Source of the DNA: an uncultured Actinomycetota bacterium
GTDB taxonomy: Bacteria > Actinomycetota > UBA4738 > HRBIN12
Direction: 5' to 3'
Assembly (NCBI GenBank): GCA_963733635.1
Contig: CAVTEH010000004.1
Span: forward strand, 259,836 to 323,835
DNA length: 64,000 nucleotides
Shown: positions 8,211 to 48,150 of the stretch, piece by piece
Numbering within the stretch: position 1 is the first letter of the stretch
How the letters are laid out: each line of letters opens with the position of its first letter
The notes under the pieces: generated by a model
Told to the model about the DNA's origin: nothing
Seen by the model: the letters and a program-made list of their open reading frames with translations, nothing else
Database searches by the model: none
Position numbers and translations under genes: made by a program

Positions 8211-8224
8211 CGGGTCTCACGAAC

Positions 8225-8333: not shown

Positions 8334-8798
8334 ATGACGGTGCTGCATGAAACGATCGAGGTCGACCTCTCGCCCTCGGAAGCGTTCGAGGCGGTCGCCG
8401 ATTTCGCGAACGCCGATGTGTGGGATCCGGGAGTGGTGCGGTCCGAACTGGTGCGACCGGGCGACCCGCCCCCAACCGGATCGGGGGCGGAGTACAGGCT
8501 CACGGTGTCGTTCCGGGGCCGAGATTCCGAGATGTCCTACCGCACGGTGAGGTACGACCCGCCAGGGCGGATCGTGCTCGTGGGCGAAGGCCAGCACATC
8601 ATGGCGACCGACACGATTCGGTTCGAAGCGCTAGAGGGACCGCGCACTCGGATCGTCTACACGGCGGAGCTCCGCCTCAAGGGGTTGGCACGCGTCGTCG
8701 AGCCTCTCCTCGGCAGGGCGTTCGTCGCGATGGGCGACCGAGCGATCGATGGGATGCGAGCATGGCTGGAGGCGATGGCTCGTGACCCGCGCGGGTGA
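8334..8798 (+). CDS. SRPBCC (START/polyketide-cyclase-like) family protein
   Basis: Intact 154-aa ORF with a layout typical of this fold (MTVLHETIEVDLSPSEAFEAVADF...). RBS aaagga upstream. Confidence 0.7.
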   Translation: MTVLHETIEVDLSPSEAFEAVADFANADVWDPGVVRSELVRPGDPPPTGSGAEYRLTVSFRGRDSEMSYRTVRYDPPGRIVLVGEGQHIMATDTIRFEALEGPRTRIVYTAELRLKGLARVVEPLLGRAFVAMGDRAIDGMRAWLEAMARDPRG

Positions 8799-9726
8799 AG
8801 CAGACGCCCGGTCGATCCGGGACGCTGCGACTCGACCCGCGAACCAACTCGCGATCGCAGCCGTGTCCGACATGCTCGACATCCCCATCCCAACCATCCG
8901 GTCCTGGGAACGGCGATACGGATTCCCGGCTCCAGCTCGCACGCGAGGGCGGCACCGTCGCTACTCCATACAGGACGTCGAACAGCTTCGAACACTCCGG
9001 GACACCATCACGTTGGGGTACGCAGCCGGGGAGGCCGTGGTGATCGTGCGGGCAGGTCCCGTCCACGTGCCGGCGCGCCGTCCCGCCATCGACGCCCTGC
9101 TGAAGTCGGCCATGGATTTGGACCCCACTACCGCCAGATCCGTACTTCACGAGGCCACGACGACCCTCGGCGTCGAACCCACCATCGTCGAGGTGGCACT
9201 CCCGGCCCTGCAAGAAGTCGGGTCGCGGTGGAAGGTGGGTGCGTGCGACGCAGCCAACGAGCATGTGATGACGGACACGGTGAGGGCATGGTTCGCGAGG
9301 TTGGCGACCCTCGCACCGCCTCCGACGCGCCAGCACCCCATCGTCTTGTCATGCGGTCCCAAGGAACTGCACAGCGCTGGGCTCGAAGCGTTCGGAGTCA
9401 TCATTGCCCGACGGGGCTGGCCCACCCTCACGCTCGGGGCCCTCACACCGGTGCAGGCGTTGCGGGGGACCGTGGTCAAGTCCGCTGCGGCCGCGGCCGT
9501 CGTGGTCGCGCAACGCGGGGTCAACCGGCGTAGCACGATAGAGTCGCTGGAGGCGATCCACGGTTTTCTCGGCCGGTCGACGTTCTACGCGGGTGGCGCG
9601 TTCGCCACCCCGACATCTCGCCGGGACGTTCCCGGCACGTACCTCGGCACTGATCTGGTGGAAGCCGCTTCGATTGTCGAAGCGGTGACCCATCAATCGG
9701 GCAGATCGACGATCGGCGCGGGATAG
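8749..9726 (+). CDS. litR: MerR-family, cobalamin-binding light-responsive regulator (LitR/CarH type)
   Basis: MerR HTH LAIAAVSDMLDIPIPTIRSWERRYGF. B12-binding module with W-x9-EH (RWKVGACDAANEH) and E-x-H-x-x-G (ELHSAG). Start is uncertain (ATG 8749 or GTG 8782). Confidence 0.75.
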   Translation: MGCEHGWRRWLVTRAGEADARSIRDAATRPANQLAIAAVSDMLDIPIPTIRSWERRYGFPAPARTRGRHRRYSIQDVEQLRTLRDTITLGYAAGEAVVIVRAGPVHVPARRPAIDALLKSAMDLDPTTARSVLHEATTTLGVEPTIVEVALPALQEVGSRWKVGACDAANEHVMTDTVRAWFARLATLAPPPTRQHPIVLSCGPKELHSAGLEAFGVIIARRGWPTLTLGALTPVQALRGTVVKSAAAAAVVVAQRGVNRRSTIESLEAIHGFLGRSTFYAGGAFATPTSRRDVPGTYLGTDLVEAASIVEAVTHQSGRSTIGAG

Positions 9727-11003
9727 CCGGTAGCGCGAAGGATCTCCTCGTGCCTCCAGGGCCGGAAGAGCCGATCGCCGTCGCAGCGTTCGAGCTCGCC
9801 AACGTACCGGCGGACATAGACGCCGTCGTGATCGAAGCGATGAGCCTGGCGAACCGGGTCCAGCGGCCTCCCTCGCCGAGGAGCGACGCCCGTGCCGGCG
9901 GCCCACTGCCAGTTGCCAGCGTTGCTGGATGGGTCGCCATCCACCAGATGGTGCATGAAGTGGCGAGCTCCCTCCTGCCACGGAACACCCATCCGCCGGG
10001 TGAGGAAGGAGGCGGCGACCAACCGAGCGCGATTGTGCATCCAGCCCTCCCGCTGCAGCTGACGCATCCCAGCATCCACGATCGGCACCCCCGTTCGGCC
10101 GGTGATCCAGGCTTCCAGGGCGCCTGCATCGAGAGGCACAGGCGAGGCACCTCCCGCGCGCATGTCCTGCCACGTCATCGATGGCACCTCGGCACGAAGC
10201 TGTAGGAAGAAGTCGCGCCACGCGATCTGACGCACGAACTCCTCAGCGCCCACGACGCCACGCAAGTGTGCGACCGCCTCCACGGGCGACACGCACCCGA
10301 AACGCAGATACGGCGACAGCCGGGAGGTCGCGTCGCGACCGAGTTCGTTCCTGGACTCCCCATATTCCGATGCGTCACGCGAAAGGAAGCTGCGTAGACG
10401 CTTCCTGCCGAAGACCTCTCCTCCGGGTGGAAGGTCGGTAGCGGTTGGATGGTATCGGGCGGGATCCGGCAACCGCCCGCCTCCCATTCCGACCCGGACC
10501 GGGATCGTGCGAGGGGCGGGTAGGAGTGCCCTCAAGTCGCGTTCCCACCACGCTCGCAGGTACGGCGTGAACACGCGATAGCAACCTCTGCCTCTTGGGA
10601 CGAGCTCACCGGGCTCGATGGCGGCATGTCCAGGGAATGCTCGAGCTGGGTGACAACCGTTCGCGATAAGGGCACGGTCCAGGCGTGCATCCCGGTCGGA
10701 TGCGAATGCGCCGACGTCCCGGGTCATGTAGACAGCCTTACAATCCATGTCCGCGACGGCCCTGGCGACCTCCGTTGCAACATCGCCCGTCCGCACGAAG
10801 AGCCGACCGCCTCTCTTCTGCAGCGATGCATCCAACCCAGCCAGGCACTCGGCGAGGAACCGAGCCCTGTTGGGCGATATCGCCATCAGCTGGGGATCCA
10901 CGACGAACAGAGGCACGACGTCATCGGTGACACGGCATGCTTCCCACAGTGCGGGATGGTCGTGGACCCGCAGGTCTCTCGTGAACAGGACCATCACGCG
11001 CAT
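9693..11003 (-). CDS. phr: deoxyribodipyrimidine photolyase
   Basis: Intact 436-aa ORF. LFTRDLRVHDHPAL at the N-terminus and TGVPIVDAGMRQLQREGWMHNRARLVAASFL in the FAD domain. Confidence 0.9.
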   Translation of the reverse strand: MRVMVLFTRDLRVHDHPALWEACRVTDDVVPLFVVDPQLMAISPNRARFLAECLAGLDASLQKRGGRLFVRTGDVATEVARAVADMDCKAVYMTRDVGAFASDRDARLDRALIANGCHPARAFPGHAAIEPGELVPRGRGCYRVFTPYLRAWWERDLRALLPAPRTIPVRVGMGGGRLPDPARYHPTATDLPPGGEVFGRKRLRSFLSRDASEYGESRNELGRDATSRLSPYLRFGCVSPVEAVAHLRGVVGAEEFVRQIAWRDFFLQLRAEVPSMTWQDMRAGGASPVPLDAGALEAWITGRTGVPIVDAGMRQLQREGWMHNRARLVAASFLTRRMGVPWQEGARHFMHHLVDGDPSSNAGNWQWAAGTGVAPRRGRPLDPVRQAHRFDHDGVYVRRYVGELERCDGDRLFRPWRHEEILRATGYPAPIVDLPD

Positions 11004-11151
11004 GCCTCAATGGTCCACGGTCCGTCGATCCATCCTGGCTCGCGAAGCTATGCAGTCGCGCCGTTCCGTGATCCACATGCCATCGGCGTGGGAATCACCT
11101 CTCACACGGCCGGTCACCCACGACTCGGCCACCGGATGAAAGGGAGGGACC

Positions 11152-21611: not shown

Positions 21612-21854
21612 ATGGGTCCCATGGATGCGCAGGTCAACGTGCACGAAGCGAAGACGCATCTGTCGCGCCTCCTCGAGCGTGTACAGATGGGCGAAGAGAT
21701 CGTGCTGGCGAAGGCGGGACGACCGATCGCGAAGATCGTTCCGCTGCCACGCGTCGTCGAGCGTCGGGTACCCGGGAGTGCGCGCGGCGACCTACGGATC
21801 GGCAGCGACTTCGATGATCCACTTCCTGATGAGGTCCTCGACTCCTTCGAATGA
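21612..21854 (+). CDS. type II antitoxin, Phd/YefM family
   Basis: VNVHEAKTHLSRLLERVQMGEEIVLAKAGRPIAKIVP. 4-nt overlap with the PIN gene. Confidence 0.8.
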   Translation: MGPMDAQVNVHEAKTHLSRLLERVQMGEEIVLAKAGRPIAKIVPLPRVVERRVPGSARGDLRIGSDFDDPLPDEVLDSFE

Positions 21855-22237
21855 AGCTGCTCCTCGACACTCATGCGTTCCTCTGGTGGATCGCAGACGA
21901 CGATCGACTCTCGCAGCCTGCTGAAGAAGCCATCGGCGATGGGGGAAACATCGTCTACCTCAGCGCCGTCTCTGTCTGGGAGATCGTCGTGAAAGCAGGA
22001 TTGGGCCGTCTCCAGGTCCCTCAACCGGTCGATCGCTTCTTGGTCGATCAGCTTCAACGTAATGCGTTCGAGCCTCTTTCCCTGCACATCCGGCATGCGC
22101 TTGCTGTGAACGACCTGCCGCAGGTCCATCGACATCCGTACGATCGCATGCTGATCGCGCAGGCCCGCGCGGACGACCTGACCTTGGTAAGTCGCGATCG
22201 GGTGATGCACGACTATCCCGTCGGGGTGCTGTGGTGA
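21851..22237 (+). CDS. vapC: PIN-domain ribonuclease toxin (VapC family)
   Basis: MKLLLDTHAFLWW...SAVSVWEIVVK...HRHPYDRMLIAQA...LVSRD. The acidic PIN residues are in place. Confidence 0.8.
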   Translation: MKLLLDTHAFLWWIADDDRLSQPAEEAIGDGGNIVYLSAVSVWEIVVKAGLGRLQVPQPVDRFLVDQLQRNAFEPLSLHIRHALAVNDLPQVHRHPYDRMLIAQARADDLTLVSRDRVMHDYPVGVLW

Positions 22238-22239
22238 GG

Positions 22240-22254
22240 GTGACTTCAGGTCAC
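22240..22254. promoter_or_regulatory. operator-like palindrome GTGACTTCAGGTCAC
   Basis: 14 of these nt are identical to 39803-39816 in the tetR/corrinoid intergenic region. It lies about 120 nt upstream of the oxidoreductase/sox operon start. Confidence 0.5.
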
Positions 22255-22374: not shown

Positions 22375-23980
22375 ATGGCGACGAAGGGCTACGACGTCAT
22401 CGTCGTCGGGGGCGGCCACAACGGGCTCACCGCCGTCCTTCTACTTCGCGCGGGCGGGGCTTCGCACCCTGGTGCTGGAGCGCCGCGAGATCGTGGGGGG
22501 CGCCTGCGTCACCGAGGAGATCGTGCCCGGGGTTCGCGCGTCCACCACGTCCTACATCGCATCGATGCTTCGTCCCGAGGTGATCCGCGACCTGCGCCTG
22601 GGCGACCACGGACTGAAGATGGTGCCCTGCGAGCCGGGCGTGCAGAGCGCCTTCGAGGATGGGACCGTCGTGCCGTGGTGGACCGACCACGCCCGAACCG
22701 TCGAGGAGTTCGCGAAGATCTCCCCGAAGGACGCCAAGGAGTTCGACACCGTCCACGCCCGGCTGGAGAAGCTCGCGCGCTACCTGCAGCCCTACTTCCT
22801 GGAAGAGCCGCCGGACCTGTACGCCAAGGGCTGGAAGCGCGTGCACGAGGCGCGCCGCGCGTTCAAGCGGTTCCGCAGGGTCACGGGTGACGAGCGTCAG
22901 CGACCTGATCCGGTTCACGACCGGGTCGCTGGGCGACTTCGTGGAGCGCCACTACGAGACCGAGAAGATCCGCCGCATGTATCTGGCCTCCAACGTGTAC
23001 GGCATGCACGCGCCGCCGTACCGCCCCGGCACGGCGATCGGCCTGATGTTCCACATGCTCTCGGGCGGCGACGACGAGGTGCAGGGCTTCTACGGCCACG
23101 TGATGGGCGGCATGGGCTCGATCACGGCCGCGATGGCGAGCGCCGCGACAGGCGCGGGTGCCGAGATCCGCACGAACGCATCCGTGGCACGCATCGACAC
23201 GCGGGGTGGGCGCGCGACCGGGGTCGTGCTGGAGGACGGCACCGAGATCGCCGCGTCCACGGTCGTGTCCAACGCCGACCCCAAGCGCACCTACCTGGGG
23301 CTGGTCGACGCGGCCGAACTCAGCGAGGACTTCCGCGACGACATCGCCGCGATCAAGATGGCCGGTCCCTGCGCCAAGGTGAACTTCGCGCTGTCGGCCG
23401 AGCCCCGGTGGACGGGCATGCCCGCCGACGCCGATCCCAACCGCCGTTCGCTGGCCACGCTGGTGCCCACGTTCGAAGAGGCCCAGCGCAGCGTACGACC
23501 AGCACCAATGGGGAGAGATCCCCGACGAGCTCTGGGTCGACTGCGTCACGGCGTCCAACGTCGACCCGACGCTGGCGCCCGAAGGGACGCACGTGATGAC
23601 CTCGTTCGTGCAGTACGTCCCGTTCGAGCTGCGCGACGGGGACTGGGACTCGCGCCGGCAGGAGCTGGTGGACAAGGTGGTCGAGCGCATCGAACGGTAC
23701 GCGCCCGGCTTCGCCCAGCACGATCGAGGGCACGTACGTCGTCACGCCGCTGGACCTGGAGCGCACCTACGGCATGACCGAGGGCAACATCTTCCACGGC
23801 GACCTGTCGATCGAGCAGCTCTTCTTCATGCGTCCGCTGCCGGGCTGGGCGGACTACCGCTCGCCGATCCGGGGTCTGTACCTGTGTGGCGCGGGCGTGC
23901 ATCCCGGCGGTGGGGTGACGGGCGCGCCCGGCTACAGCGCGTCGCACCGCGTGCTTCGGGACCTCAAGAAGGCCCGGTAG
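22375..23980 (+). CDS. phytoene-desaturase-family (CrtI-like) NAD(P)/FAD-dependent oxidoreductase (at least 4 frame changes)
   Basis: YDVIVVGGGHNGL; LVLERREIVGGACVTEE; GFYGHVMGGMGSITAAMA; C-terminus GNIFHGDLSIEQLFFMRPLPGWADYRSPIRGLYLCGAGVHPGGGVTG. The pieces come from ORFs 22375, 22472, 22659, 23593 and 23774. Confidence 0.7.
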
Positions 23981-23987
23981 AGCCGGC

Positions 23988-24221
23988 ATGGCGCTGACGG
24001 TGCCGTGCCCGAACTGCGGCCCGCGTCCGCACACCGAGTTCACGTTCGGCGGTGAGCTTCGTCCGATCGGTGTCACCGATCCCGAGGAGGACTTCGCGCG
24101 CGTCTACCTGCCCGAGAACGCGGCCGGCCTGCAGCGGGAGCGATGGTTCCACGCGATGGGGTGCAAGCGGTGGGTGACGCTCACCCGCGACACCCGCACG
24201 AACGAGGTCACCGCACCGTGA
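23988..24221 (+). CDS. soxD: sarcosine oxidase delta subunit family protein
   Basis: Intact 77-aa ORF: CPNCGPRPHTEFTFGGE...WFHAMGCKRW. Confidence 0.8.
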   Translation: MALTVPCPNCGPRPHTEFTFGGELRPIGVTDPEEDFARVYLPENAAGLQRERWFHAMGCKRWVTLTRDTRTNEVTAP

Positions 24222-26882
24222 GCGGCGGGACGCTTCAACTTCGAAGGCGACCGCCGTGGCGTTCGAGGACGGGGACACGGTCGCCTCGGCCCTGTACCGC
24301 CACGGAGTCCGCACGTTCACCCGGTCGCTGAAGTATCACCGCCGCCGCGGCCTGTACTGCGGCACGGGCGACTGCCCGAACTGCCTGATCAGGGTCGACG
24401 GGGTGCCGGCGGTTCGTTCGTGCACGACCCCGGTCGCGGAGGGCATGCAGGTCGAACGCGAAGACGGATGGCCGAGCACCGAGTTCGACCTGATCAGCGT
24501 CACCGACAAGCTGCACGCGTTCATGCCGGTGGGGTTCTACTACAAGACGTTCGTGAGGCCCCGGTTCGCCTGGGAGGCGGCGGAGAAGGTGATCCGCCGC
24601 GCGACCGGCCTGGGGCGGCTGCCCGATGGCGCTGCCGCCGACCGCGATCGATGCGCGTCATGCCCACGCCGACGTGCTGGTGATCGGCGCCGGCATCGCG
24701 GGTCTCGCCGCGGCCCTCGAAGCCGCAGGCCGAGGCGAGACGGTGCTGGTCGCCGACGAGGCGACGATCGGCGCCGCGATCGCGCCGGGCCCGACGCTCG
24801 AGCGTCTGCAAGCCCTTGAAGCCGAGGCACGTCGCACCGACCGCATCACGATCCTGGAAGGGCACGCCGCGATCGGCGTGTACGAGGGCCCCATGGTGCC
24901 GCTCGTGGCCGCCGGCGCGGTGGTCCAGGTGCATCCGGGCCGGATCGTGGTGGCGACCGGTGCGGCCGAGGCACACGGCGTCTTCGACGGCAACGATGTG
25001 CCCGGCGTGTGGTTGGGACGCGGCGCCGCGCGGCTGGCCGGCGTGCATCGGGTCTCGCCGGGCGAGCGCGCCGTGGTCGTGGTCACGGGTGACGAGGGCC
25101 TCGAGCATCTGCGGACGCTGCGTGAGGCGGGCGTCCGGGTCATCGCCGTGGTTCCCGCAATGCTCGCCGATCGCGTGCCGGTGGGCGTGCAGTCGATCGT
25201 GGATGCCCGGGTGGTCCGCGCCGAGGGCACGACGTCGGTCACCTCGGTCGTGGTGCGAGATGGGGCGGCGACCGCAGGATCGCCTGCGACGCCGTCGGTG
25301 CTGTCGCTGGGCCTGGCACCTCGCGACGGCCTGCTCCGCATGGCGCTGCCGGACGAACCGGTCGTGGGGGCCGGTGACGTCGTCGTCCCCGGCTGTTCTC
25401 CCGAGCGAGGCCGAGGCGTCGGGCCGGGCCGCGGCGCGACGGAGAGGCCGACGCGACCTCGGATCGGCATGCGCATGACGCCGAGCTCAGCCGATGCGGG
25501 GATCGTCTGCCTGTGCGAGGACGTCGGCGTCCAAGGACCTCGAGCAGGCATGGGGCGAGGGGTACCGCTCGTCGGAGATCCTGAAGCGATACACCACCGC
25601 GACGATGGGCCCGTGCCAGGGGGCGATGTGCGGGCGTCACCTGGCTGCGTTCTGTGCCGCCCGTGCTCCGGAGGCCGACGTGGCGCGAGCGGGGGTGCGC
25701 ACCACCGCCAGGCCGCCCGCCCGGCCCGCCACGCTCGAGGCGCTCGCCGCCACCGTCCACGAGGTGATCCCGAAGCGCACGTCATTGCATCGCATCCACC
25801 TGGAAGCCGGCGCCACCATGGGGTGGTCCGGCAGCTGGCAGCGCCCGTTCACCTACGGGAACTGGCGCGAGGAGTACCGGGCGGTGCGCGAGCGCGTGAG
25901 CCTGATGGACGTGGGCACGCTCGGCAAGTTCTTGGTGCGCGGCCCCGACGCCGAGCGCCTGGTCGATCACGTGGCGCCGTGCCGGGTCGACGATCTGCCG
26001 CCGGGCCGCTCGCGCTACCTGCTGGCGCTGGGCGAAGCGGGCTACGTCACCGACGACGGCTTGCTGTGCCGCCTGGACGACGGCTTCTACGTCACGTCCA
26101 CCTCAGGCGGAGCGGCGCGCATGGACGCCGGGTTGCGCGACTGGGCCGACCGTCTCGAGCTCCGAGTGCACATCGTGGAACAGACCGCGCAGCTGGGCGC
26201 GATCGTGGTGGCGGGCCCGCACGCGCGCGACCTGCTGGCGTCCCTGTGCGATGACGGCGATGTGTCCCGCGACGCATTCCCCTACCTGGGTCACCGTGAG
26301 ATCTCGGTCGCGGGAGTCGCGTGCCGGGCGATCCGGCTCGGCTTCGTGGGGGAGCTGGCCTACGAGCTGCATCACCCTCGTCGACGGGGCCCAGCGCTGT
26401 GGCAGGCGCTGTCGATGGCGGGAGAGCCGTTCGATCTGCTGCCGCACGGGCTCGACGCGCTGGAGCTGCTCCGCCTGGAGAAGGGCCACGTGTACCTGGG
26501 CCAGGACACGCTGCCCGACGACACGCCCGCCAAGCTGGGGATGTCGTGGGCGGTGGCGATGGACAAGCCCGACTTCGTGGGCAAGGTGGCGTTGCGACGG
26601 ATGTCGGCGCTGCCCCCGGAACGCCGCATGGTCGGCCTGCGTTTCGACGGCGTCATCGGCGCGGTGGCGGACCTGCGTGGTGTGCCGCTGACCGCGGGGG
26701 ACCGGATCGTCGGTCGCATCACGTCGGCGGAGCACTCCCCGGCGGTCGACGCCGGCATCGGGCTCGGATGGATCCAGGCCGCTCGACGGCGAGTTCCCGA
26801 CGCAGTTGCACGCGAACGGTGCATCGCCACGGTCGTGCCGACGCCGTTCTACGACCCGGAAGGGGCCAGGCTCCGTGGTTGA
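24218..26882 (+). CDS. soxA: sarcosine oxidase alpha subunit family protein (several frame changes)
   Basis: FEDGDTVASALYRHGVRTFTRSLKYHRRRGLYCGTGDCPNCLIRVDG; DVLVIGAGIAGLAAA; C-terminal GcvT-like fold LGKFLVRGPDA...LRLEKGHVYLGQD. Pieces come from ORFs 24256, 24626 and 25494. GTGA overlap with soxD. Confidence 0.75.
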
Positions 26883-27325
26883 CGTTCGCGTGTCCGAGCC
26901 CACGGTGGTCCACGTCCTGCGCTCGTCCCGAGGCGATCGAGCGCCGCCGCTGGCCGTGGCGCCCGCGGCCCACGCCGCGAGGGTGGCGCCGGACGAGCTG
27001 CTCTGCTCGATCGATCCTGAAGCGGGCGATGACATCGCCGATGTCGTCACCGTCGCCGATGCGGACGGCCTCGTCCTCGACGTGAGCGACGGCTGGACGG
27101 CCTGGACGCTGAGCGGTCCGGACGCGCGAGGCGCGTTCGTCGCGGCTCTCCGAGCTCGAGCTTCCCGATCGAGGTTTCGTCCAGGGCGAGGTCGCGCGAC
27201 TCCCGGTGAAGGTGCTCGTCGACGACGACCTGGTGACGCTGCTGATCCCGGCGATGTGGTCCGACCACCTGGGTGCGCGGATCCGCGCCGGCTGTGCGGC
27301 GCTGGGTGTGCGGGAGGTGTCGTAG
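26875..27325 (+). CDS. soxG: sarcosine oxidase gamma subunit family protein (frameshift near 27140)
   Basis: Small ORF between alpha and beta. WTAWTLSGPDARGAF, then in another frame LPVKVLVDDDLVTLLIPAMWSDHLGARI. Confidence 0.5.
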
Positions 27326-28505
27326 GTGACCGGCCTGTTCCGCTCGCGGACCTACCTCACGGCTCCGAGTCGGTCGAGCCCAGCCTACGACGTGGTGATC
27401 GTGGGCGGTGGCGTGAACGGACTTGTCGCTGGCCTTCCACCTGGCCGACAAGCACGGAGTCACGAACGTCGCCGTGCTCGAGCGCAACTACATCGGTTCG
27501 GGCGGTTCGGGCCGCAACACCCAGGTGCTCCGTGCCAACTACAACACGCCCGGAGACCGTGCCGCTCTACCAGGGCGAGCCTCGGCATGTATCGCACGCT
27601 CAGCCAGGAGCTGGACTTCAACGTGCTGTTCTCCAACCAGGGCGAGCTGGACCTGTGCCACACGCAGGACTCGCTTGCAGGTCGAACGTGAGAAGTCGCT
27701 GCTCAACCGCGCCTTCGGCGTGCAGACCGACATCCTGACCCCGGACGAGGTCGCCCGCACGCAACCGCTGTCGATCTGTCCGGCGGCGGCGAGCTTCCGG
27801 TGGTGGGTGCGTCGCTGCACCCGCCGGGCTCGTTCGCGCGGCACGACTCGGTGGTCTGGGGCTACGCCGTGGCGGCGGAGCGACGCGGTGTCCACGTCCA
27901 CGAAGGCGTAGAGGTCACCGGCTTCGATGTGGATGACGGCCGCTGCACGGGGCGTCCGGACGACAGCGGGACCGATCGCAGCGGGGTTGGTCGTGTCGGC
28001 GGTGGCCGGGTACTCCAGCGAGCTGGCGCGCATGGCGGGCGTGCACCTGCCGATCGAGACGATGTGCCTGCAGGCGTTCGTCACCGAGCCCTACACGCCG
28101 GTGCTCACCGGCCTCGTGTCGTCGATGGACCTGTTCATCTACGTGTCGCAGACGGCTCGCGGCGAGCTGCTGGCCGGGGCCGAGGTCGTGCCGTACACGA
28201 CGTACTCGACGCGTTCGACCTTCGAGTTCCTTGCGGAGGCGGCGAAGCGTTCGATCCAGATCCTGCCCTTCATGGCGAAGGCCCGCGCGATGCGACAGTG
28301 GGGGGGCCTGTGCGACATGACGCCCGATTCATCCCCGATCCTGGGCGCGAGCGGCGTCGAGGGGTTCTCGATCATGGCCGGCATGGGCACGTGGGGATTC
28401 AAAGGGGCACCGATCTTCGGCTCGACCATGGCCGAGGCGATCGTCACCGGACGCACCCCCGAGCTGATCGCAACCGTTCGCGCTGAGCCGCTTCCGGCTG
28501 GATAG
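27326..28505 (+). CDS. soxB: sarcosine oxidase beta subunit family FAD oxidoreductase (several frame changes)
   Basis: YDVVIVGGGVNGL; GSGGSGRNTQVLRANYN; LCDMTPDSSPILG...GMGTWGFKGAPIFG. Pieces come from ORFs 27326, 27423, 27800 and 27927. Confidence 0.75.
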
Positions 28506-39051: not shown

Positions 39052-39777
39052 CTAACGACAACGTCCTAGGACGGAACCGTTAGGGCCACAACGACCCACG
39101 CGAGCAGCACGACCACGGTGGTGCCTACCGCGCGCGCCGATGGCGCTCTCCAGCAGCGTCGTGAAGTCTTCGACACGCTGCTGTTGCCGCTCGGGTTGTG
39201 CCCGTAGCCGATGGAACAGCCCTGGGTCGAGCTCTTCGCTCACCAGTGCGTCCTGCAGGGAGTTCGAGAGCCAGTCGACCATGGACACGAGCATCTCCAG
39301 GTCGACGTCGGTGCGCACCTCGCCGCGCTCCTGGCCCCATTCCACGAACTCGAGCGTGCCGTACGGATCCTCGCTGACCAGGTACCGGTTGATCTCACGT
39401 TTCAGTGCGAGCTCCGTGCCGTAGTTGCCGATCAGGATCACACGGTTGGGGACCCAGTCCTCCTTGATCAGGTGCTCCGTGCGGGCGAGCCAGAAGCGAA
39501 GGACCGCGAAGTACCCCTGTTCGCGCACCTCGTCTGGGGCATCGAGCCAGGCGGGCAACTGAGCCACCGATCGCTTGTACGCCTCGAAGAACAGCCCCGA
39601 CTTCGACCGGAAGTGCTGGAAGATCGACCCCTTCGCGATGCCGAGCTCGCGAGCGATGTCCTCGACCTTCGTGCCGTGATACCCGTGCTCGGCGAAGTGG
39701 CGCATCGAGGATTCCACGATGCTGTTGCGCTTGGCCTGCGTGCGGACGCTGCGCGGCGTTCCAGTGATGGTCGACAT
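39052..39777 (-). CDS. TetR/AcrR family transcriptional regulator
   Basis: RNSIVESSMRHFAEHGYHGTKVEDIARELGIAKGSIFQHFRSKSGLF. Divergent from the corrinoid operon. Confidence 0.85.
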   Translation of the reverse strand: MSTITGTPRSVRTQAKRNSIVESSMRHFAEHGYHGTKVEDIARELGIAKGSIFQHFRSKSGLFFEAYKRSVAQLPAWLDAPDEVREQGYFAVLRFWLARTEHLIKEDWVPNRVILIGNYGTELALKREINRYLVSEDPYGTLEFVEWGQERGEVRTDVDLEMLVSMVDWLSNSLQDALVSEELDPGLFHRLRAQPERQQQRVEDFTTLLESAIGARGRHHRGRAARVGRCGPNGSVLGRCR

Positions 39778-39802
39778 GGCGCAAGCCAAGCGTACGACAT
39801 GA

Positions 39803-39816
39803 GTGACTTCAGGTCA
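39803..39816. promoter_or_regulatory. operator-like palindrome GTGACTTCAGGTCA (site 1, tetR-proximal)
   Basis: Starts 26 nt upstream of the tetR start codon. Identical to 22240-22253. Confidence 0.5.
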
Positions 39817-39898
39817 TGCGGGTCGCCGATGGAACCCGTCTCCACCGGATGCTGATGACCTGCCATCATGAGGTTTCTGGGCGATGCTCGGACCTCCT

Positions 39899-39911
39899 TG
39901 ACCTTAAGTCA
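39899..39911. promoter_or_regulatory. operator-like palindrome TGACCTTAAGTCA (site 2, operon-proximal)
   Basis: Its reverse complement TGACTTAAGGTCA differs at 1 of 13 positions from site 1. It ends 14 nt before the corrinoid-protein ATG. Confidence 0.45.
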
Positions 39912-39924
39912 GCGAGCGCATGCC

Positions 39925-40579
39925 ATGGATGAGGACCTCGACGTACTGAAGCGGGCCTTGATCGCGGCCGACATGGACCTGGGCGTCGCCGCGGTGCAGC
40001 GATTGGTCGACAACGGGGCCGACCCCAAGTGGATCTTGGAGGAAGGCATGGCCGTGGCCATGTTCGACCTAGGCGAGATGTGGAAACGCGGCGAGGTGTT
40101 CCTGCCGGAGGTGGTCGCTTCCGCGGAGGTCTTCAAAGCGTGCAACGCGATCGTCGAGCCGGTGCTGCTGGCGCAGAAGGACCCCGATGCCGAAGCGAAC
40201 GCCCTGGTACTGCTGGCCACCGTGAAGGGCGACCTGCACGACCTGGGCAAGAACATGGTGGGCGCCATGCTGCGTACGAGCGGCTTCGACGTGCACGACA
40301 TGGGCAAGGACGTCAGCGCCGACCGGATCATCGAGGCCATCCACGAGATGAAACCCACGATCGTCGGCCTGTCCGCACTGCTCACGACGACGGTGCCCTA
40401 CCAGGAGACGGTCATCAAGAAGCTCGTGGCCGCGGGGCTCCGTGAAGAGGTCATCGTCATGGTGGGAGGCGCACCGGTGACCCCCGAATGGGCCGAGAAG
40501 ATCGGCGCCGACGGGTATCGCGAACAACGCACCCGAGGCAGTGGAGATCGCCAAGAAGCTGGTGGGAGCGGCCCAATGA
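39925..40579 (+). CDS. methyltransferase cognate corrinoid protein (B12-binding; frameshift near 40520)
   Basis: FLPEVVASAEVFKA (B12-binding_2) and VKGDLHDLGKN (DxHxxG), SALLTTT, VMVGGAP. C-terminus ANNAPEAVEIAKKLVGAAQ* is in another frame. Confidence 0.8.
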
Positions 40580-41470
40580 GCCCAAGGGCGGCGGACGCCG
40601 GCACCACTGTGCTCTCTGGCCCGGGCGGCGAGGTCCGCATCGGCGACGAGCACCCCTTCTCCATCATCGGCGAGCGGATCAACCCCACCGGACGCGCCAG
40701 GCTCACGCAGGAGCTGACCGCCGGGGACATGACCACGGTGCAGGCCGATGCGCTCGCGCAGGTCCAGGCGGGGGCGGTGGTGCTGGACCTCAACGCCGGC
40801 ATCCCAGGGTTCGACGAGGCCGCGATGCTGTCACAGGTCGTCATGGCGGTGCACGAGGTCGTCGATGTGCCCCTGTGCATCGACTCGTCCACGCCCGAGG
40901 CGCTCGAGGCTGCGGTGCCGCTGGCGAAGGGCAAGGTGCTGATCAATTCCGTCACCGCAGAGGCGCATTCGATAGCACGCGTGCTGCCCTTGGTGAAGAA
41001 GCTCGATGCCGCCGTGATCGGCATGGCCAACGACGAAGAGGGCATCTCGATGGACCCCGGTGAGCGCCTCGCCGCCGCTCGCACGATCGTGGAGGCCGCT
41101 GCCGATCACGGGATCGCGCGCGAGGACGTCATCATCGACCCGCTCACCATGCCGATCGGCGCGGCGGGTAACGCTGCGACCGCCATGTTCGAGACCGTTC
41201 GGCTGATACGAGATCGAGCTCCGCGTCAACGTCAGCTGCGGCGCATCGAACATCTCGTTCGGCATGCCGGACAGGCAGCGGATCGACGCAGCGTTCCTGA
41301 CGATGGCGGCCTTGGCCGGCATGAATGCGGCGATCACGAACCCGCTCCACGCGCCGGTGAGGGCGGCCCTGCTCGCGAGCGACCTGTTGCTTGGACGCGA
41401 CGAGTTCGGTTCGGCGTGGATCGCCGAGCACCGCGCGAAGACCGGCGTCACGGCGCCCACTGGCGGCTAG
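40576..41470 (+). CDS. pterin-binding methyltetrahydrofolate:corrinoid methyltransferase (MtgA/AcsE-like; frameshift near 41220)
   Basis: FSIIGERINPTG...LDLNAG...PLCIDSS...INSV...DPLTMPIG, then NVSCGASNISFGMPDRQRIDAAFLTMAALAGMNAAITNP. Confidence 0.8.
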
Positions 41471-41476
41471 TCGATC

Positions 41477-43429
41477 GTGGCGGGCGGCAAGCTCGAGGTC
41501 CGCTACGAGCCGAGCGGCACCACGGCGCACGTCCCGCCCGGCACCACGTTGTTCAACGCCGCGCACTGGGCCGGCATCCCGATCGAGTCGACCTGCGGCG
41601 GGCGCGGCACCTGCGGCAAGTGCAAGGTACAGGTGCTGGAGGGGCACGCCGAGCGAACGCTGGCCGACTACCGGCACGTCTCGGACGGGCTCGACGAAGG
41701 GTGGCGCCTGTCGTGCCAGTGCGAGGTCGCCGAGGAGATGGTGGTCGACGTGCCGCGCGCGATGACGGTGCCGAAGGCCGCGACGATGGGCGTGGGCCGG
41801 TTCGTGCTGCTGGAACCCAACACATCGAAGTACCTGCTCACGATCGCGGCGCCCACGCTGGAGGATCCGCGGAGCCGCCTGCGACGCGTCACCGACGCCC
41901 TGGAGACCGAAGGGCTGGAGGTGACGCACGCCGGCTGCGTGTTGCCGCGCCTTGCCGTCGCGATCGACGACGAAGACGACTCGATCGTCACCGCCACCGT
42001 GATCGGGGATCGCCTCGTCGACGTCGAGCCGGGCGATACCACCGGGCGGCTCTTCGGGGTCTCGATCGACGTGGGCACCACCACTGTGGTCGCGACCCTC
42101 ATGGACCTTCGGGCAGGTTCCGCGGCAGCCGTGGAATCCTCGATCAACCGCCAGGCTCCGTTCGGCGCGGACGTGCTGACGCGCGTCAGCTACGCACAGA
42201 TGCATCGCGCTCAAGAAGCCGAAGGCGTAGCGCGAGGGGAAGGCGCTCAAGAAGCCGAAGGCGTAGCGCGAGGGGAAGGCCCGGATGCGCTCGAGGAGCT
42301 CCGCGCCGCGATCGTCGCCACGATCGACGGTCTGCTGGGCAGTGTGTGCGCGACCGCGGGGGTCGACCGCGACGCGATCCTGGAGGTCGTCGCCGCGGGC
42401 AACGCCACCATGCTGCACCTGCTGCTCGGCGTCGATCCCGAGTCGATCGGTCGTGCGCCGTTCACCGCGACGTTCCTGGAGCCTCAGGATCTGCGCGCCG
42501 CGGACGCGGGCATCGCAGATCCATCCGGAAGGGCCGGCTCGTGCTGTTCCCGTCGATCGGCGCGTACGTCGGCGCGGACATCGTGGCCGACATCGTGGCG
42601 ACCGGTATCCCGAGGGAACCGATCACGAGGCTCCTGGTCGACGTCGGTACGAACGGCGAGATCGTGGTGGGCAACGAAGACCGCGTGGTGACGACCGCGG
42701 CTCCGGCGGGTCCAGCGTTCGAAGGCGGCCAGATCCTGCACGGCATGCGCGCCACCGAGGGAGCCATCGAGGGCGTGGTGTTCGACGTCGCCGCGGCGGA
42801 CGTTCGACTCCAAGTGATCGGCGGCGACGTCAACCCTCGCGGCATCTGTGGCAGCGGCCTCATCGACATCGTGGCGCAGCTCCGGCTGACCGGGCTCCTG
42901 GGGGACAGCGGCATGCTCCTCTCGCCCGACGAGGCTGTCGAACGCGGCCACCCGTTCGCCGATCGCCTCCACGTTGACGACGAGGGCGTGCGCAGGTTCG
43001 CATTGACCCAAGACGTGGTCATCACCCAGCGCGACATCCGAGAGCTGCAGCAGGCCAAAGGCGCCATCGCCACCGGCATCGGGGCCGCGATGCGCGAACG
43101 CGGCCTCGCCTATTCCGACCTCGATGAAGTACTCCTCGCTGGGTCGTTCGGCACCTACGTCGACCCGCTCGGCGCTCGCGTACTGGGCTTGGTGCCGCCA
43201 GTGGCCGTCGACAGGATCCGGGCCGTCGGCAACACCGCGAGCGAAGGCGCGAAGATGGCGCTGCTGTCGTTCCGTGAACGTCAGGTAGCGTTCGAGCTGC
43301 CGGCGTTCGTCGAATACTTGGAGCTGTCGGGCGTGGAAGATTTCAACGAGCGGTTCATCGCCAACGTCGGCGTTCCCGCCGCTCGAGCTGGTGAAGCCCG
43401 GTGCCGTCGTGGGAGACCAGGCCTCATGA
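41477..43429 (+). CDS. corrinoid reductive activase (RACo type: 2Fe-2S ferredoxin + ASKHA ATPase; frame changes near 42515 and 43365)
   Basis: ESTCGGRGTCGKCKV...WRLSCQ; SIDVGTTTVVATLMDL; VAAGNATMLHLLLG; LVDVGTNGEIVVG...APAGPAFEGG...GICGSGLID...GSFGTYVD. Confidence 0.75.
42208..42279 (+). repeat. perfect tandem duplication, 2 x 36 bp, in frame inside the RACo gene
   Basis: cgctcaagaagccgaaggcgtagcgcgaggggaagg occurs twice (42208-42243 and 42244-42279). It encodes AQEAEGVARGEG twice as an insertion after the YAQMH position. Confidence 0.9.
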
Positions 43430-43484
43430 CGTCGACGGGCGCCGGGCCGAAGCACCGGCCGAGGAACCGACCAAGAACCGGCCG

Positions 43485-44088
43485 ATGAACCGAGTGGCGT
43501 TCATCGCGTGCGGCGCGGTGGCGATCGACACGAAGACCCTGATCGATCAACACGGGTGGGACGCCGACGTGCACGGCATCTCTTCGGACCTGCACATGAC
43601 GCCGCACGAGATCGCCCCGGCCGTCGAAGCCAAGCTCCAACTGCTGCTGCCCAAGTACGACCGCGTGATCGTGGTCTATGGCGACTGCGGCACCGGTGGG
43701 CGCCTGGACGAGGTGCTGGCCCGTTACCCCGCGGCGCGCCCGGCGGGCTTCCACTGTTTCCAGTGGTATGCGGGAGAGTTGTACCAGCGCTTCGAGGATG
43801 ACATCGGCATCTACTTCCTCACCGACTGGCTCGTGAACAACTGGGAGCGAGCGGTGATCAAGGGCCTGGGCATCGACCGGTTCCCGTTCACGAAGGACGC
43901 CTATTTCGGCAACATCACTCGCATCCTGTTCGTGCGGCAACACCCCGATCCCGAACGCGAGGCGAAGGCTCGCGAGATCGCGGAGTGGATGGGCAAGCCA
44001 CTGGAGATCCACGACCTGGGGATCGGCCCCCTCGACGACCTGCTGACCCCGCTCATGGAAAGAAGCGCTCAAGCAGCCGAAGGCGTAG
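43485..44088 (+). CDS. DUF1638 domain protein (no in-frame stop as assembled; reads through into the mttB-like gene)
   Basis: VAFIACGAVA...VIVVYGDCGTGG...YFLTDWLVNNWE. The expected end is near the TAG at 44086-44088, which is out of frame in this assembly. Confidence 0.6.
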
Positions 44089-44091
44089 CGC
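44066..44091 (+). repeat. third copy of the 26-nt core of the RACo tandem repeat
   Basis: cgctcaagCagccgaaggcgtagcgc matches the first 26 nt of the 36-bp unit at 25 of 26 positions. It lies at the DUF1638/mttB junction just before RBS ggagga. Confidence 0.8.
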
Positions 44092-44108
44092 ATTGGAGGA
44101 AGCCGACG

Positions 44109-45567
44109 ATGTTCGAGCATGACGCCACGCTGAAGGTCCTGTCGCCCGCGCAGGAGGAGATCATCCACCAGCAGGCGATGCGGATCCTGGAAGAGATCGG
44201 TACCGACGTCCTGCACGACGAGGCTCGCAAGCTGCTGTCCGAGGCCGGCATGAAGGTCGAGGACGATCGCGTGTATTGGGACCGCGCCTTCGTCATGGAA
44301 CAGGTCGCGAAGGCGCCGTCGTCATTCCGGCTGCAGGCGCGCAACCTCGATCGTTCCCTGACGATCGGAGGGGCGGACGGAGTACCGGCGTGGATGAACG
44401 TGGGTGGCCCGCCGTTCGCCTCGCGACCTCGACGAGGGTCGACGAAGCGGCCGCATGGAAGACCACGACCGTTTCATGAAGCTCACCCAGGCCACCGACG
44501 TCCTCAACTGCGTGCAGATCGGCGCCGCCGAGGCCACCGACCTGCAGATGGAAACGCGCCACATGGACATGGAGTACTCGGCGATCCGCTACTCGGACAA
44601 GCCGTACACCACGTACGGCACGAGCGGCCCGCGTGCGCGCGACGGCATCCGCATGGCCGAGATCGTGCACGGCGGGCGCGAGGCTATCGAGGAAACGCCG
44701 GCGCTCATGGGCATCGTGAATCCCAATTCACCGCTGATCTGGGACTTCCGAATGACCGACGCGCTGCTGGCGTGGGCGGAGGCGAAGCAGCCCATCGTGG
44801 TGACGCCGTTCCTGCTGGCGGGGGCGACGAGCGCGGTGAGCGTGAGCGGCGGGCTCGCGCAGCAGGTGGCCGAGGCGCTCAGCGGGGTCGCCCTCGCCCA
44901 GCTGGTGCGCGAGGGCGTGCCGTGCCTCTACGGGTCGTTCTTCACGGTCACCGATATGCGCACGGGATCACCCGCGTTCGGCACGCCGGAGTCGGTGCTT
45001 GGCGTCCTGGCCGGCTCGCAGCTCGCGCGCCGCTACGGACTTCCGTTCCGCGGGGGTGGAGGGCTGGCGTCGTCCCCGTCGGTCGACGCCCAGGCGGCCG
45101 CGGAGTCGCAGATGATGCTGTGGGCCACCAATCTCGCGTCGACCGACGTCGTGCTGCACGCAGCCGGATGGCTCGAGGGCGGCCTGTGCGCCTCGTTCGA
45201 GAAGTTCGCGCTCGACATCGAGCTGTTGCGCCAGTTCCAGATCCAGGCCGCCGGGATCGGGTTCACGGAGGAGGCGCTTGCCTTCGACGCCCTGAAGGAA
45301 GTCGGACCCGGCGGACTGTTCCTCTCTTCGCCGCACACGCGGGAGCATTTCAAGGAGTGGCTCTACATGAGCCCGTTGTTCATGACGCCCGACTTCGCGA
45401 CGTGGGAGATGGCCGGTTCACAGACCACCGAGGTCGCCGCCAACAAGGCGTGGAAGGCACTCCTGGAGACCTACGAGGACCCCGGACTGGATCCGGCCAT
45501 CGACGAGGAGCTCCAGGCGTACATGGCGAGCCGCCGCGACGCCGCCGACCTCTTCGTGGAGGACTAG
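44109..45567 (+). CDS. MttB-superfamily (trimethylamine methyltransferase family) non-pyrrolysine methyltransferase (frameshift near 44410)
   Basis: LSPAQEEIIHQQAMRILEEIGTDVLHDEA...; NPNSPLIWDFRMTDALLAWAEAKQPIVVTPFLLAGATSAVS; GGLFLSSPHT. No in-frame TAG. RBS ggagga 8 nt before the ATG. Confidence 0.8.
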
Positions 45568-45583
45568 TCTTTTCCAGACTAGT
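45563..45583 (+). terminator. stem-loop overlapping the mttB-like stop codon
   Basis: actagtct-tttcc-agactagt gives an 8-bp stem. AT-richer than the surroundings. Confidence 0.4.
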
Positions 45584-45669
45584 GCCTCGCCACTCCAAGC
45601 TTGCAGGGGGCAGGGATCCGGGCGACGATAGGTCATTCAGAGAGAGGGGGAGCTCTGACGTTTGACCCG

Positions 45670-46422: not shown

Positions 46423-46991
46423 TTAGTCCGTCCTTCGGTCGTGGCGGAAGCAGTGCGCGACGTGATCGTTCACCATGCCGGTCGCCTGCATGAACGCGTA
46501 GCACACCGTGGGTCCCACGAACCGGAACCCCCGGCGCTTCATGGTCCGTGACATCGCGCGGGACCGATCGGTCTCGGAAGGGATCTGGTCCGACCCGGCG
46601 CCAGCGGTTCACGATCGGTTGACCGCCGACGAACGTCCACAGGTATGCGTCGAGCGAACCTTCGCTGCGCTGCACCTCGAGCACGCGCTCGCGCGTTCGC
46701 GACCGTCGACTCAACCTTCAGCCGGTTGCGCACGATCGCCGGGTCCTGCAAGCAGCCGCTCGATCTTCGCGGGTGTGAACCGCGCGACCTTCGCCGGCTC
46801 GAACCCCGCGAACGCCCGTCGATAGCCCTCGCGCTTGTGCAGGATCGTGGCCCAGCTCAGTCCCGCTTGCGCACCTTCGAGCGTGAGCATCTCGAACAGG
46901 TGGACGTCGTCGTGCGACGGCACGCCCCATTCCTCGTCGTGATACGCCAGGTACGCAGGGTCATCGAGCGAGCCCACGCGCAGCGATCCAC
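46423..46991 (-). CDS. tag: DNA-3-methyladenine glycosylase I (at least 3 frame changes)
   Basis: VDRCAWA..DDPAYLAYHDEEWGVPSHDDVHLFEMLTLEGAQAGLSWATILHKRE...IVRNRLK...GSLDAYLW...FVGPTVCYAFMQATGMVNDH, spread over three frames. Confidence 0.75.
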
Positions 46992-46994
46992 GGC

Positions 46995-48150
46995 TCAGGC
47001 GCCGGCGGCGATCTGCGCCAGCACCTCGTCGACCCGCGCCAGGCCCTTCAGCGTGTGCTCGATGTCGTAGCCGAACCCGAACCGGATGCCCTTCTTCAGG
47101 CCGAACATCTCGCCGGGCACCAGCGAGCACGCTCTGTTCCGTGCGGATCCGTTCGGCTGAGCCGCGGGTCTTGCCCGGCAGTCCGACCTTGGCGTAGGTG
47201 ATCGCTCCTGCGGCGGGCCGTGCCCAGTCGAAGCACGTCGGCGTGGCTCCGCATCCACGGCTCCAGGTGCGGGTAGTTGGCGCGGATGATGGCACGCGTG
47301 CGCGCCAGGATCGACTCGCGGACGTCGGGGATCATCGCGAGCGCGGCCAGGCGGTCCGACGACGATGTTGGGGGTGAGGGTCGTGTAGTCGTGGCGTTCC
47401 CAGATGCGTTCGATCACCTCCGGCGGCGCCACGGCCCATCCGACCCGCAGGCCCGGCATCGCGAACGCCTTCGACAGCCCACTGGTGATCACCACCCGCT
47501 CGGAGCGACCCCAGAAGGACGAGCGTGGTGGCGTCGCTTCCAGCTCGGCGCCGCGGTAGATCTCGTCCGCCACGATCCACGCGCCGCGGCGCTCGGCGAC
47601 CCGGACGATGGCGTCCATCTCGTCTTCGCTCAGCACCGAGCCGGTGGGGTTGTTGGGGTTGCACACCATGATGACCTTCGTGCGTTTGCCCACGGCTCGG
47701 TCGAGCTCCTCCAGGTCCAGCGCCCATCGACCGTCGTGCAGCTTCAGCCGGAACCGGTCGGTGCCCGCGCCGAACGCCCGTCCAAGCCCCGAGCCCTGCA
47801 TGTAGTTGGGGACCATGAAGGCGAGGCGGTCCCCGGCTCCCAGCAGCGCGAACAGCGACAGGAAGTTGGCCTCGGACCCGCCGTTGACCATGGTGACCTG
47901 CTCGGCGGTCGCACCCGGGTACCACTCGGCGATCGCGGCTCGGGTCTCGTCCGAGCCCTCCGACAGCGGGTAGCCGAGCGTCGTGTACAGGAACGCCTTC
48001 GCCGTCGGCCGCCGGCCCGAGCAGCTCCCGGATCGTCATGGGCAGGACGCCGGATTCGGACAGGTCGTACTCGACCTGATGCCAGTACAGGGATTGGTAG
48101 CGCTCCATCGCGAACAGGTCGAGGTCCACGGGTTCCTCCTGGGTGGTCAC
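46995..48150 (-). CDS. class I/II PLP-dependent aminotransferase (several frame changes)
   Basis: YQSLYWHQVEYDLSESGV...; VNGGSEANFL...VCNPNNPTG...SGLSKAFAMPGLRVGW...; C-terminus PGEMFGLKKGIRFGFG. Confidence 0.7.

Follow-up and report, generated by a model that had tools for sequence, protein, structure and literature searches.

A TetR-associated operon for probable cobalamin-dependent quaternary-amine demethylation in an uncultured actinomycete

A compact methyl-transfer operon with a divergent TetR-family gene was found in a 64,000 bp stretch of DNA from an uncultured Actinomycetota bacterium (contig CAVTEH010000004.1 of assembly GCA_963733635.1, positions 259,836–323,835), hereafter called the window; all coordinates are those of the whole 64 kb window. 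The region 39052–45583 carried a TetR gene on the minus strand and five genes on the plus strand, the latter encoding a corrinoid protein, a tetrahydrofolate methyltransferase, an activase of the RACo type, a DUF1638 protein and a MttB-superfamily methyltransferase. We consider it likely that this region is a TetR-repressed catabolic operon for the cobalamin-dependent demethylation of a quaternary amine, and that it is functional in an aerobic, uncultured actinomycete of soil or sediment.

Gene content and gene order

The Pfam profile search was run on frames spliced by hand with the three-frame translation as a guide. Frame calling from third-codon-position GC content with a Viterbi path inflates the number of frameshifts at gene junctions and was used solely to choose in-frame blocks for Pfam. 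After splicing, the five parts and the divergent TetR that a preliminary description had recognized were all borne out. The TetR-family regulator corresponded to positions 39127–39777 of the minus strand once repaired (TetR_N, E = 3e-16), the open reading frame (ORF) as sequenced being 39052–39789. The first plus-strand gene, mtgC, encoded a corrinoid (B12-binding) protein of the MtgC/MtbC type (39925–40579; B12-binding_2 and B12-binding, E = 4e-29). The ATG of the next gene overlapped the mtgC stop codon (ATGA); its product was a pterin-binding, MtgA/AcsE-like methylcorrinoid:tetrahydrofolate methyltransferase (40576–41470; Pterin_bind, E = 4e-27, profile positions 1–244 of 244). Then came the genes for a RACo-type ATP-dependent reductive activase (41477–43429; Fer2, RACo_linker, Raco_middle and RACo_C_ter), for the DUF1638 protein (43485–44088; E = 8e-23), ending with the TAG at 44086–44088, and for a non-pyrrolysine MttB-superfamily methyltransferase of 485 amino acids after repair (44109–45567; MTTB, PF06253, E = 7.7e-163, profile positions 27–497 of 500). 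About four tandem copies of a 12 nt repeat (GGCCGAAGAACC) lay at 43445–43492, in the spacer between RACo and DUF1638. Compared with L004, the nearest related locus, in which the RACo and DUF1638 genes overlap, the window has about 26 nt inserted here. Cobalamin and other riboswitches were searched for and none was found.

The corrinoid protein combined a B12-binding cap (PF02607) with a Rossmann domain (PF02310), and its DxHxxG motif read DLHDLG. It was 96% identical to the L004 copy and scored below the cut-offs of TIGR02370 (182.6 versus 215.3 bits), NF047995 MtgC (178.8 versus 310 bits) and NF041607 MtbC (190.3 versus 350 bits). The pterin-binding protein scored above the cut-off of the NCBIfam model PRK07535 for methyltetrahydrofolate:corrinoid methyltransferases (304.9 versus 259 bits). 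The activase showed an N-terminal 2Fe-2S ferredoxin domain with the cysteine motif CGGRGTCGKC...C, a linker, a middle domain and an ASKHA domain, and it was colinear, in two stretches, with the structure of RACo from Carboxydothermus hydrogenoformans (3ZYY, E = 5e-102). Against the RamA model TIGR04270 it reached 122.6 bits for a cut-off of 500, with a match confined to the ASKHA part.

We propose that the MttB homolog would move one N-methyl group of the substrate to the Co(I) form of the corrinoid protein, from which the pterin-binding methyltransferase would hand it to tetrahydrofolate. Cofactor oxidised to Co(II), likely a frequent event in an aerobe, would be re-reduced by the RACo-type activase with the help of its 2Fe-2S domain and ATP. 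DUF1638 would be an accessory of unassigned chemistry.

A database search with the MttB homolog returned 7,478 relatives; identity was 69% or higher throughout the best 120, nearly all of which belong to uncultured Actinomycetota. The order corrinoid protein, tetrahydrofolate methyltransferase, RACo, DUF1638, MttB was shared by about 45 of 60 related loci (one genome per species). The loci with that order were labelled Actinomycetota or Actinomycetes, with the exception of L056, labelled as a delta proteobacterium. The divergent TetR gene was kept in the closer clade, and RACo was missing at its position in a few loci. L004 comes from a metagenome-assembled genome (MAG) of the Microflora Danica and showed 85.7% DNA identity over 18 kb; its six genes are all intact, with overlapping stops and starts. 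Uninterrupted copies of the operon were found in metagenome contigs and MAGs. With dozens of Actinomycetota MAGs sharing its gene order, the operon is not unusual.

Reading frames and inserted repeats

None of the six genes was intact as sequenced, and eight single-base indels had to be repaired. They were placed by DNA alignment with the related loci L001, L003 and L004, apart from one that was placed by comparison of the DUF1638/mttB junctions. In the TetR gene, a 1 nt deletion at about 39129 led to a false C-terminal extension of 26 amino acids. The other seven were 1 nt insertions, located at about 40518 in the corrinoid protein gene (shifting the final 20 codons), 41214 in the methyltransferase gene, 42516, 42534 and 43368 in the RACo gene, 44060 (within 44058–44064) in the DUF1638 gene and 44420 in the MttB homolog gene. 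Two large ORFs, 39868–43488 and 43401–45665, proved to be run-throughs typical of high-GC DNA, entering and leaving the true frames, and in their translations stretches of credible protein gave way to nonsense rich in arginine and back again. That these ORFs, of 1206 and 754 amino acids, encode fusion proteins was ruled out by three-frame translation and by tblastn searches with intact homologs. The insertion in the DUF1638 gene produced an apparent in-frame fusion with MttB. This fusion was also rejected: in the relatives that share a 27 nt element at the junction (L006, L008, L010, L013, L014 and L063, which the junction comparison covered), DUF1638 stops at the TAG of this element, and a single additional base precedes the element in the window.

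The breaks were not restricted to the operon. Frame-breaking single-base indels occurred every 0.5–1 kb approximately over the whole window; examples beyond the operon lie at 4279, 16990, 19159, 46589–47995, 52198, 59030 and 59298. The comparison with L004 gave 30 insertions and 13 deletions. The flanking genes were broken in the same manner (S58 peptidase, AzlC, adenine glycosylase, an aminotransferase, an ornithine-cyclodeaminase-family gene and inositol phosphatase). Further away, Pfam profiles were split across frames for CFA synthase, two class III aminotransferases (Aminotran_3), an amine-oxidase-family gene, the sox genes described below, ClpX and a class I aminoacyl-tRNA synthetase. 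A public gene call of 296 amino acids, 100% identical to part of the window, was a fragment of a protein of about 530 amino acids, which is consistent with a MAG annotation fragmented by indels. Among the 60 related loci, hits were split over at least two frames in 16 of the 26 loci from Microflora Danica MAGs and in none of the 34 short-read loci. The Microflora Danica MAGs were assembled from Nanopore data only and polished once with Medaka (PMC12313526). The codons flanking each break, before and after it, gave a dN/dS ratio of 0.05–0.12 relative to L004 and included no stop codon.

The breaks very probably represent long-read consensus errors, the operon being intact in the organism, since they extend over the whole window, follow the sequencing platform, are flanked by sequence with such low dN/dS values and are accompanied by no in-frame stop. 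The preliminary description had mentioned a dead operon as an alternative. A decaying pseudogene cluster, with real frameshifts and a methyl-transfer system out of use, would be in keeping with the presence of at least one frame-breaking indel in each of the six genes, with indels lying outside homopolymers, and with an insertion in RACo seen in no relative. It fits poorly with a similar density of breaks over the entire 64 kb, including essential genes such as ClpX and the aminoacyl-tRNA synthetase, with the absence of any nonsense mutation or large deletion, with the dN/dS values and with the restriction of split frames, among relatives, to Nanopore MAGs. We regard it as very unlikely. The window is an example of how indel-rich long-read MAGs mimic gene fusions and pseudogenes, and ORF-based readings of it need frameshift-aware tools.

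The insertion in RACo was in frame and 72 nt long (42207–42278, plus strand). It consisted of two perfect tandem copies of a 36 nt unit that contains the 27 nt element, and added AQEAEGVARGEG twice to the protein (24 residues), in a loop between residues 254 and 256 of 3ZYY. It was present in no related locus. The 27 nt element has palindromic ends and the consensus GCGCTC[A/G]AG[A/C]AGCCGAAGGCGTAGCGC; three copies were found in the window, and the form GCGCTCAAGMAGCCGAAGGCGTAGCGC carries a TAG. The copy at the DUF1638/mttB junction, GCGCTCAAGCAGCCGAAGGCGTAGCGC (44065–44091, plus strand), provides the DUF1638 stop codon. At this junction the element was common to the six relatives named above (near position 9950), including short-read assemblies. 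It was repeated in tandem in L014 and absent from other loci, the nearest relative included. The presence at the same junction in short-read relatives ruled out an adapter or assembler artefact. Exact copies were also found in four unrelated high-GC metagenome contigs (L064–L067), one of them forming the C-terminus of SURF1 ("ALKQPKA*"). Rfam searches, folding and plasmid BLAST revealed no identity for the element, which from its sequence is possibly a small REP-like repeat.

The MttB homolog, the operator and the probable substrate

The repaired MttB homolog was colinear with homologs of 485 amino acids, with up to 92% identity. Three solved structures served as the only anchors for comparison with characterized enzymes: the protein was 43% identical to 4YYC from Sinorhizobium meliloti (E = 1e-110), 39.9% identical over its full length to MtgB of Desulfitobacterium hafniense (E = 1e-104), and distant from the pyrrolysine-containing MttB of Methanosarcina barkeri (7XCL, E = 1e-32). 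Leu319 (codon CTG) aligned with Pyl334 of MttB (X334 of 7XCL). This leucine was invariant in the clade and was also found in MtgB and 4YYC. The score against the pyrrolysine equivalog model TIGR02369 was 264.2 bits, far under the cut-off of 525. Both frame segments of the gene were free of TAG and of any other stop, in agreement with what had first been noted, and no tRNA-Pyl was found in the window. Homologs are automatically annotated as "trimethylamine--corrinoid protein Co-methyltransferase", as would suit a true pyrrolysine-type trimethylamine methyltransferase whose amber codon was lost or mis-assembled. The invariant leucine at the pyrrolysine position and the lack of a tRNA-Pyl in the window exclude the loss of an amber codon that had been envisaged, and with the similarity scores and the TIGR02369 result also opposing it, a pyrrolysine-type enzyme is hardly credible. 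The non-pyrrolysine nature of the homolog was confirmed.

In MtgB, the carboxylate of glycine betaine is bound by R312 and H348 and the trimethylammonium group by Y97 and F356, and the Y97A and F356L variants show a several hundred-fold increase in Km (PMC13080624). R312 is kept in all characterized members of the family, which all act on acidic quaternary amines (PMC13080624). The equivalents of R312 and H348 in the window protein, R314 and H350, were present and clade-invariant. Because these carboxylate ligands are kept, the enzyme probably acts on a quaternary amine that bears a carboxylate or is otherwise acidic. The statement of the preliminary description that the substrate cannot be read from the sequence holds, the class being narrowed to this extent. 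Glycine betaine is our single best guess, its product going onward through the sarcosine-oxidase-family cluster that appears to be co-regulated with the operon.

The TetR protein was 95% identical to the intact L004 protein of 217 amino acids and scored 34.5 bits against the BetI model TIGR03384 (cut-off 201.3). The 147 nt intergenic region between TetR and mtgC contained operator-like palindromes of the form TGAC-N5-GTCA. Two were perfect, TGACTTCAGGTCA at 39804–39816 and TGACCTTAAGTCA at 39899–39911, and a third with one mismatch lay between them at 39856–39868. Each of the 43 related loci that could be tested had at least one palindrome in the 260 nt preceding mtgC, and in 37 of the 43 a pair was spaced by 88–92 bp. 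In total, 88 palindromes were found in the mtgC promoter zones for four in the remaining 790 kb. In L034, where the operon is split, each part retained a palindrome. The conserved TGAC-N5-GTCA operator pair is new here. Four palindromes instead of two were seen in L029, L031, L033 and L049, in which corrinoid protein, methyltransferase, DUF1638 and MttB genes are present without a RACo gene at that position.

The window contained a single further perfect palindrome, at 22241–22253, identical to the 39804 site (TGACTTCAGGTCA); for 64 kb, chance recurrence of an exact 13-mer was calculated at about 3e-4. It lies 122 nt upstream of a plus-strand cluster (22375–28469) of the heterotetrameric sarcosine-oxidase family, which starts with the gene for a CrtI-like FAD oxidoreductase and continues with soxD, soxA, possibly soxG, and soxB family genes. 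The cluster was heavily frame-broken and was recognized by the Pfam profiles Amino_oxidase, Fer2_4, SO_alpha_A3, GCV_T and DAO and by NCBIfam models for the soxD, soxA and soxB families. In L072, L074, L075 and L076, too, the palindrome precedes the orthologue of the CrtI-like gene. In three of these four contigs, L074 and L076 among them, it stood beside a TetR gene whose product is 58% identical to that of the window. In other phyla, the neighbours of the orthologous TetR and operator were genes for a Rieske oxygenase, an amidohydrolase, a DAO-family protein and a homocysteine S-methyltransferase. This distribution of a sequence motif suggests that the operon and the CrtI-like/sox cluster may form one regulon devoted to an N-methylated compound. 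The same distribution favours, indirectly, a pathway in which betaine is turned into glycine by way of dimethylglycine and sarcosine, though it is no proof of the substrate. Directly upstream of the distal operator, ORF translations pointed to a Phd/YefM-like antitoxin and a PIN-domain VapC-like toxin (21612–22237, plus strand).

The corrinoid protein and the pterin-binding methyltransferase might mainly, or also, work as a split methionine synthase, passing methyl groups from methyl-tetrahydrofolate through cobalt to homocysteine, with MttB as one of several methyl donors. In Ruegeria pomeroyi, MtgC and MtgD work in both directions and methionine cannot be made without them (PMC12478193), and such a role has been shown for the two proteins in Ruegeria and Phaeobacter; methionine synthesis in Phaeobacter inhibens depends on DUF1638 together with a RamA-like protein (PMC5764234). 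The homocysteine S-methyltransferase gene found under the orthologous TetR and operator in L074 and L075 points in the same direction. By contrast, no gene for a homocysteine-binding protein was found in the operon, in the examined region of the window, or within 10 kb in the approximately 45 related loci, and the TetR control and the tight coupling to mttB suit an inducible catabolic unit. We therefore judge the methionine synthase unlikely.

Several points weigh against a functional betaine-type demethylation operon. Both positions of the MtgB aromatic pair are occupied by glycine in the window protein (G99 for Y97 and G358 for F356), and both glycines are clade-invariant; the corresponding motif reads AGWLEGG, for AGILQYF in MtgB. 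Glycine betaine binding, if any, must thus rely on a different aromatic cage, for which the conserved W95 and W354 may be considered as candidates from the alignment. No gene for a betaine transporter or a dimethylglycine dehydrogenase adjoined the operon, in the window or in the relatives. The predicted link between TetR and its operator is a sequence footprint, and the distal operator is a single site and not a pair. Activase function may suffer from the 24 inserted residues in RACo. Most of the errors are insertions of one base away from homopolymers, which is not the textbook Nanopore signature, and some of the frameshifts, as read from the assembly, may be real.

Known systems, DUF1638 and neighbouring genes

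This type of system is already known from aerobes, and what sets the window apart is the actinomycete host, the compact TetR operon, the RACo-type activase and the pocket differing from that of MtgB. The preliminary description had drawn part of its interest from non-pyrrolysine MttB homologs having mostly been studied in anaerobes, a ground since overtaken by work on aerobic MtgBCD. MtgBCD, RamA and DUF1638 demethylate glycine betaine in the aerobe R. pomeroyi, and the system is widespread in marine aerobes (Mausz et al. 2025, PMC12478193). It shares with the window a PF06253 methyltransferase, a PF02310 corrinoid protein, a pterin-binding methyltransferase delivering to tetrahydrofolate, an ATP-dependent activase, DUF1638, an aerobic host and downstream steps of the dimethylglycine/sarcosine type. 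Its genes are scattered, whereas those of the window form one compact, translationally coupled operon under TetR. In addition, R. pomeroyi is a member of the Proteobacteria with a RamA-type activase, while the actinomycete has a RACo-type activase and a non-MtgB pocket, with no MtgE partner seen.

The D. hafniense MtgB/MtgC/MtgA system, which moves methyl groups from glycine betaine to tetrahydrofolate (PDB 2QNE and 9YCE; PMC13080624), has in common with the window the TIM-barrel family, the leucine at the pyrrolysine position, R312/H348, and an adjacent cognate corrinoid protein and tetrahydrofolate methyltransferase. It differs by the two cation–pi positions, both glycine in the window, and by the aerobic host and the inclusion of DUF1638 and RACo inside the operon in the latter. 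The best solved-structure match, 4YYC, is a putative trimethylamine methyltransferase of uncharacterized function from an aerobic soil bacterium; it shares AGWLEGG, the leucine and the arginine and histidine ligands, but has a tyrosine at the position of MtgB Y97, where the window protein has a glycine. The RACo of C. hydrogenoformans has the same four-domain architecture and aligns colinearly. It serves, in an anaerobe, the CoFeSP of the acetyl-CoA pathway, and the window protein differs by the 24-residue repeat insertion. The Eubacterium limosum enzymes MtpB, MtcB, MtyB and MthB (proline betaine, carnitine, gamma-butyrobetaine and the phosphocholine/choline pathway) are likewise non-pyrrolysine members of the superfamily, with acidic quaternary amines as substrates and a conserved residue equivalent to R312 (PMC13080624). 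Unlike the situation in the window, they belong to anaerobic gut acetogens in which one corrinoid protein serves many paralogs.

The DUF1638 protein was 95% identical to the L004 copy and belongs to a family of about 1,060 representative clusters, across which C9, H37, P40, C68 and C91 are invariant and H90 nearly so. Its AlphaFold2 model had a pLDDT of 96.8. No fold match in the PDB exceeded a TM-score of about 0.3, and no PDB sequence match was found either. A kinship with transcarbamoylases was considered, but the fold matches were weak (TM-score about 0.3, root-mean-square deviation above 11 Å) and were not regarded as homology. In the model, the invariant cysteine and histidine residues follow beta strands 1 to 3, the usual place for cofactor binding in alpha/beta folds, and one may reasonably guess at a metal or cluster site. 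DUF1638 co-occurs with a RamA-like activase across Alphaproteobacteria, and both are genetically required for the B12-dependent split methionine synthase of P. inhibens (Price et al. 2018, PMC5764234); in Ruegeria, DUF1638 is induced on nitrogen-containing osmolytes (PMC12478193). The role of DUF1638, given as not known in the preliminary description, is thus partly covered by genetics already published.

A bolder picture can be offered tentatively. The clade may use a novel quaternary or N-methylated substrate, within a cross-phylum TetR/TGAC-N5-GTCA regulon that couples a B12-dependent first demethylation to oxygen-dependent enzymes (the CrtI-like oxidoreductase, the sarcosine-oxidase family and, elsewhere, a Rieske oxygenase). 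DUF1638 would then be a Cys3His metal-binding partner of RACo, keeping the corrinoid reduced in air. We see this combination as possible but doubtful.

The oxygen-linked genes announced for the window (photolyase, amine-oxidase-family and sarcosine-oxidase-family genes) were found again with Pfam and NCBIfam, and the aerobic, light-exposed gene context holds. The photolyase gene (9702–11006, minus strand) matched FAD_binding_7 at 9702–10349. It is adjoined by the gene for a MerR-family regulator with a B12-binding domain (8779–9666, plus strand), resembling the light sensors CarH and LitR. This is a second B12-using function of the window, linked to light; in L001 and L002 a homolog of the regulator immediately follows the operon. 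The amine-oxidase-family gene (6079–7209) is part of a minus-strand cluster (3916–8216) with CFA synthase, DUF1365, this flavoprotein and a short-chain dehydrogenase, and the amine-oxidase-type enzyme of the preliminary description probably has no part in the breakdown of amines.

The compact TetR-controlled operon with its clear operator offers a handle for finding the inducer and hence the substrate, and the tight pairing of RACo and DUF1638 makes it a clean system for working out the function of DUF1638. If the operon works as we infer, B12-dependent betaine demethylation would extend from marine Proteobacteria to abundant uncultured Actinomycetota of soils and sediments, and the environmental demand for cobalamin would be wider.

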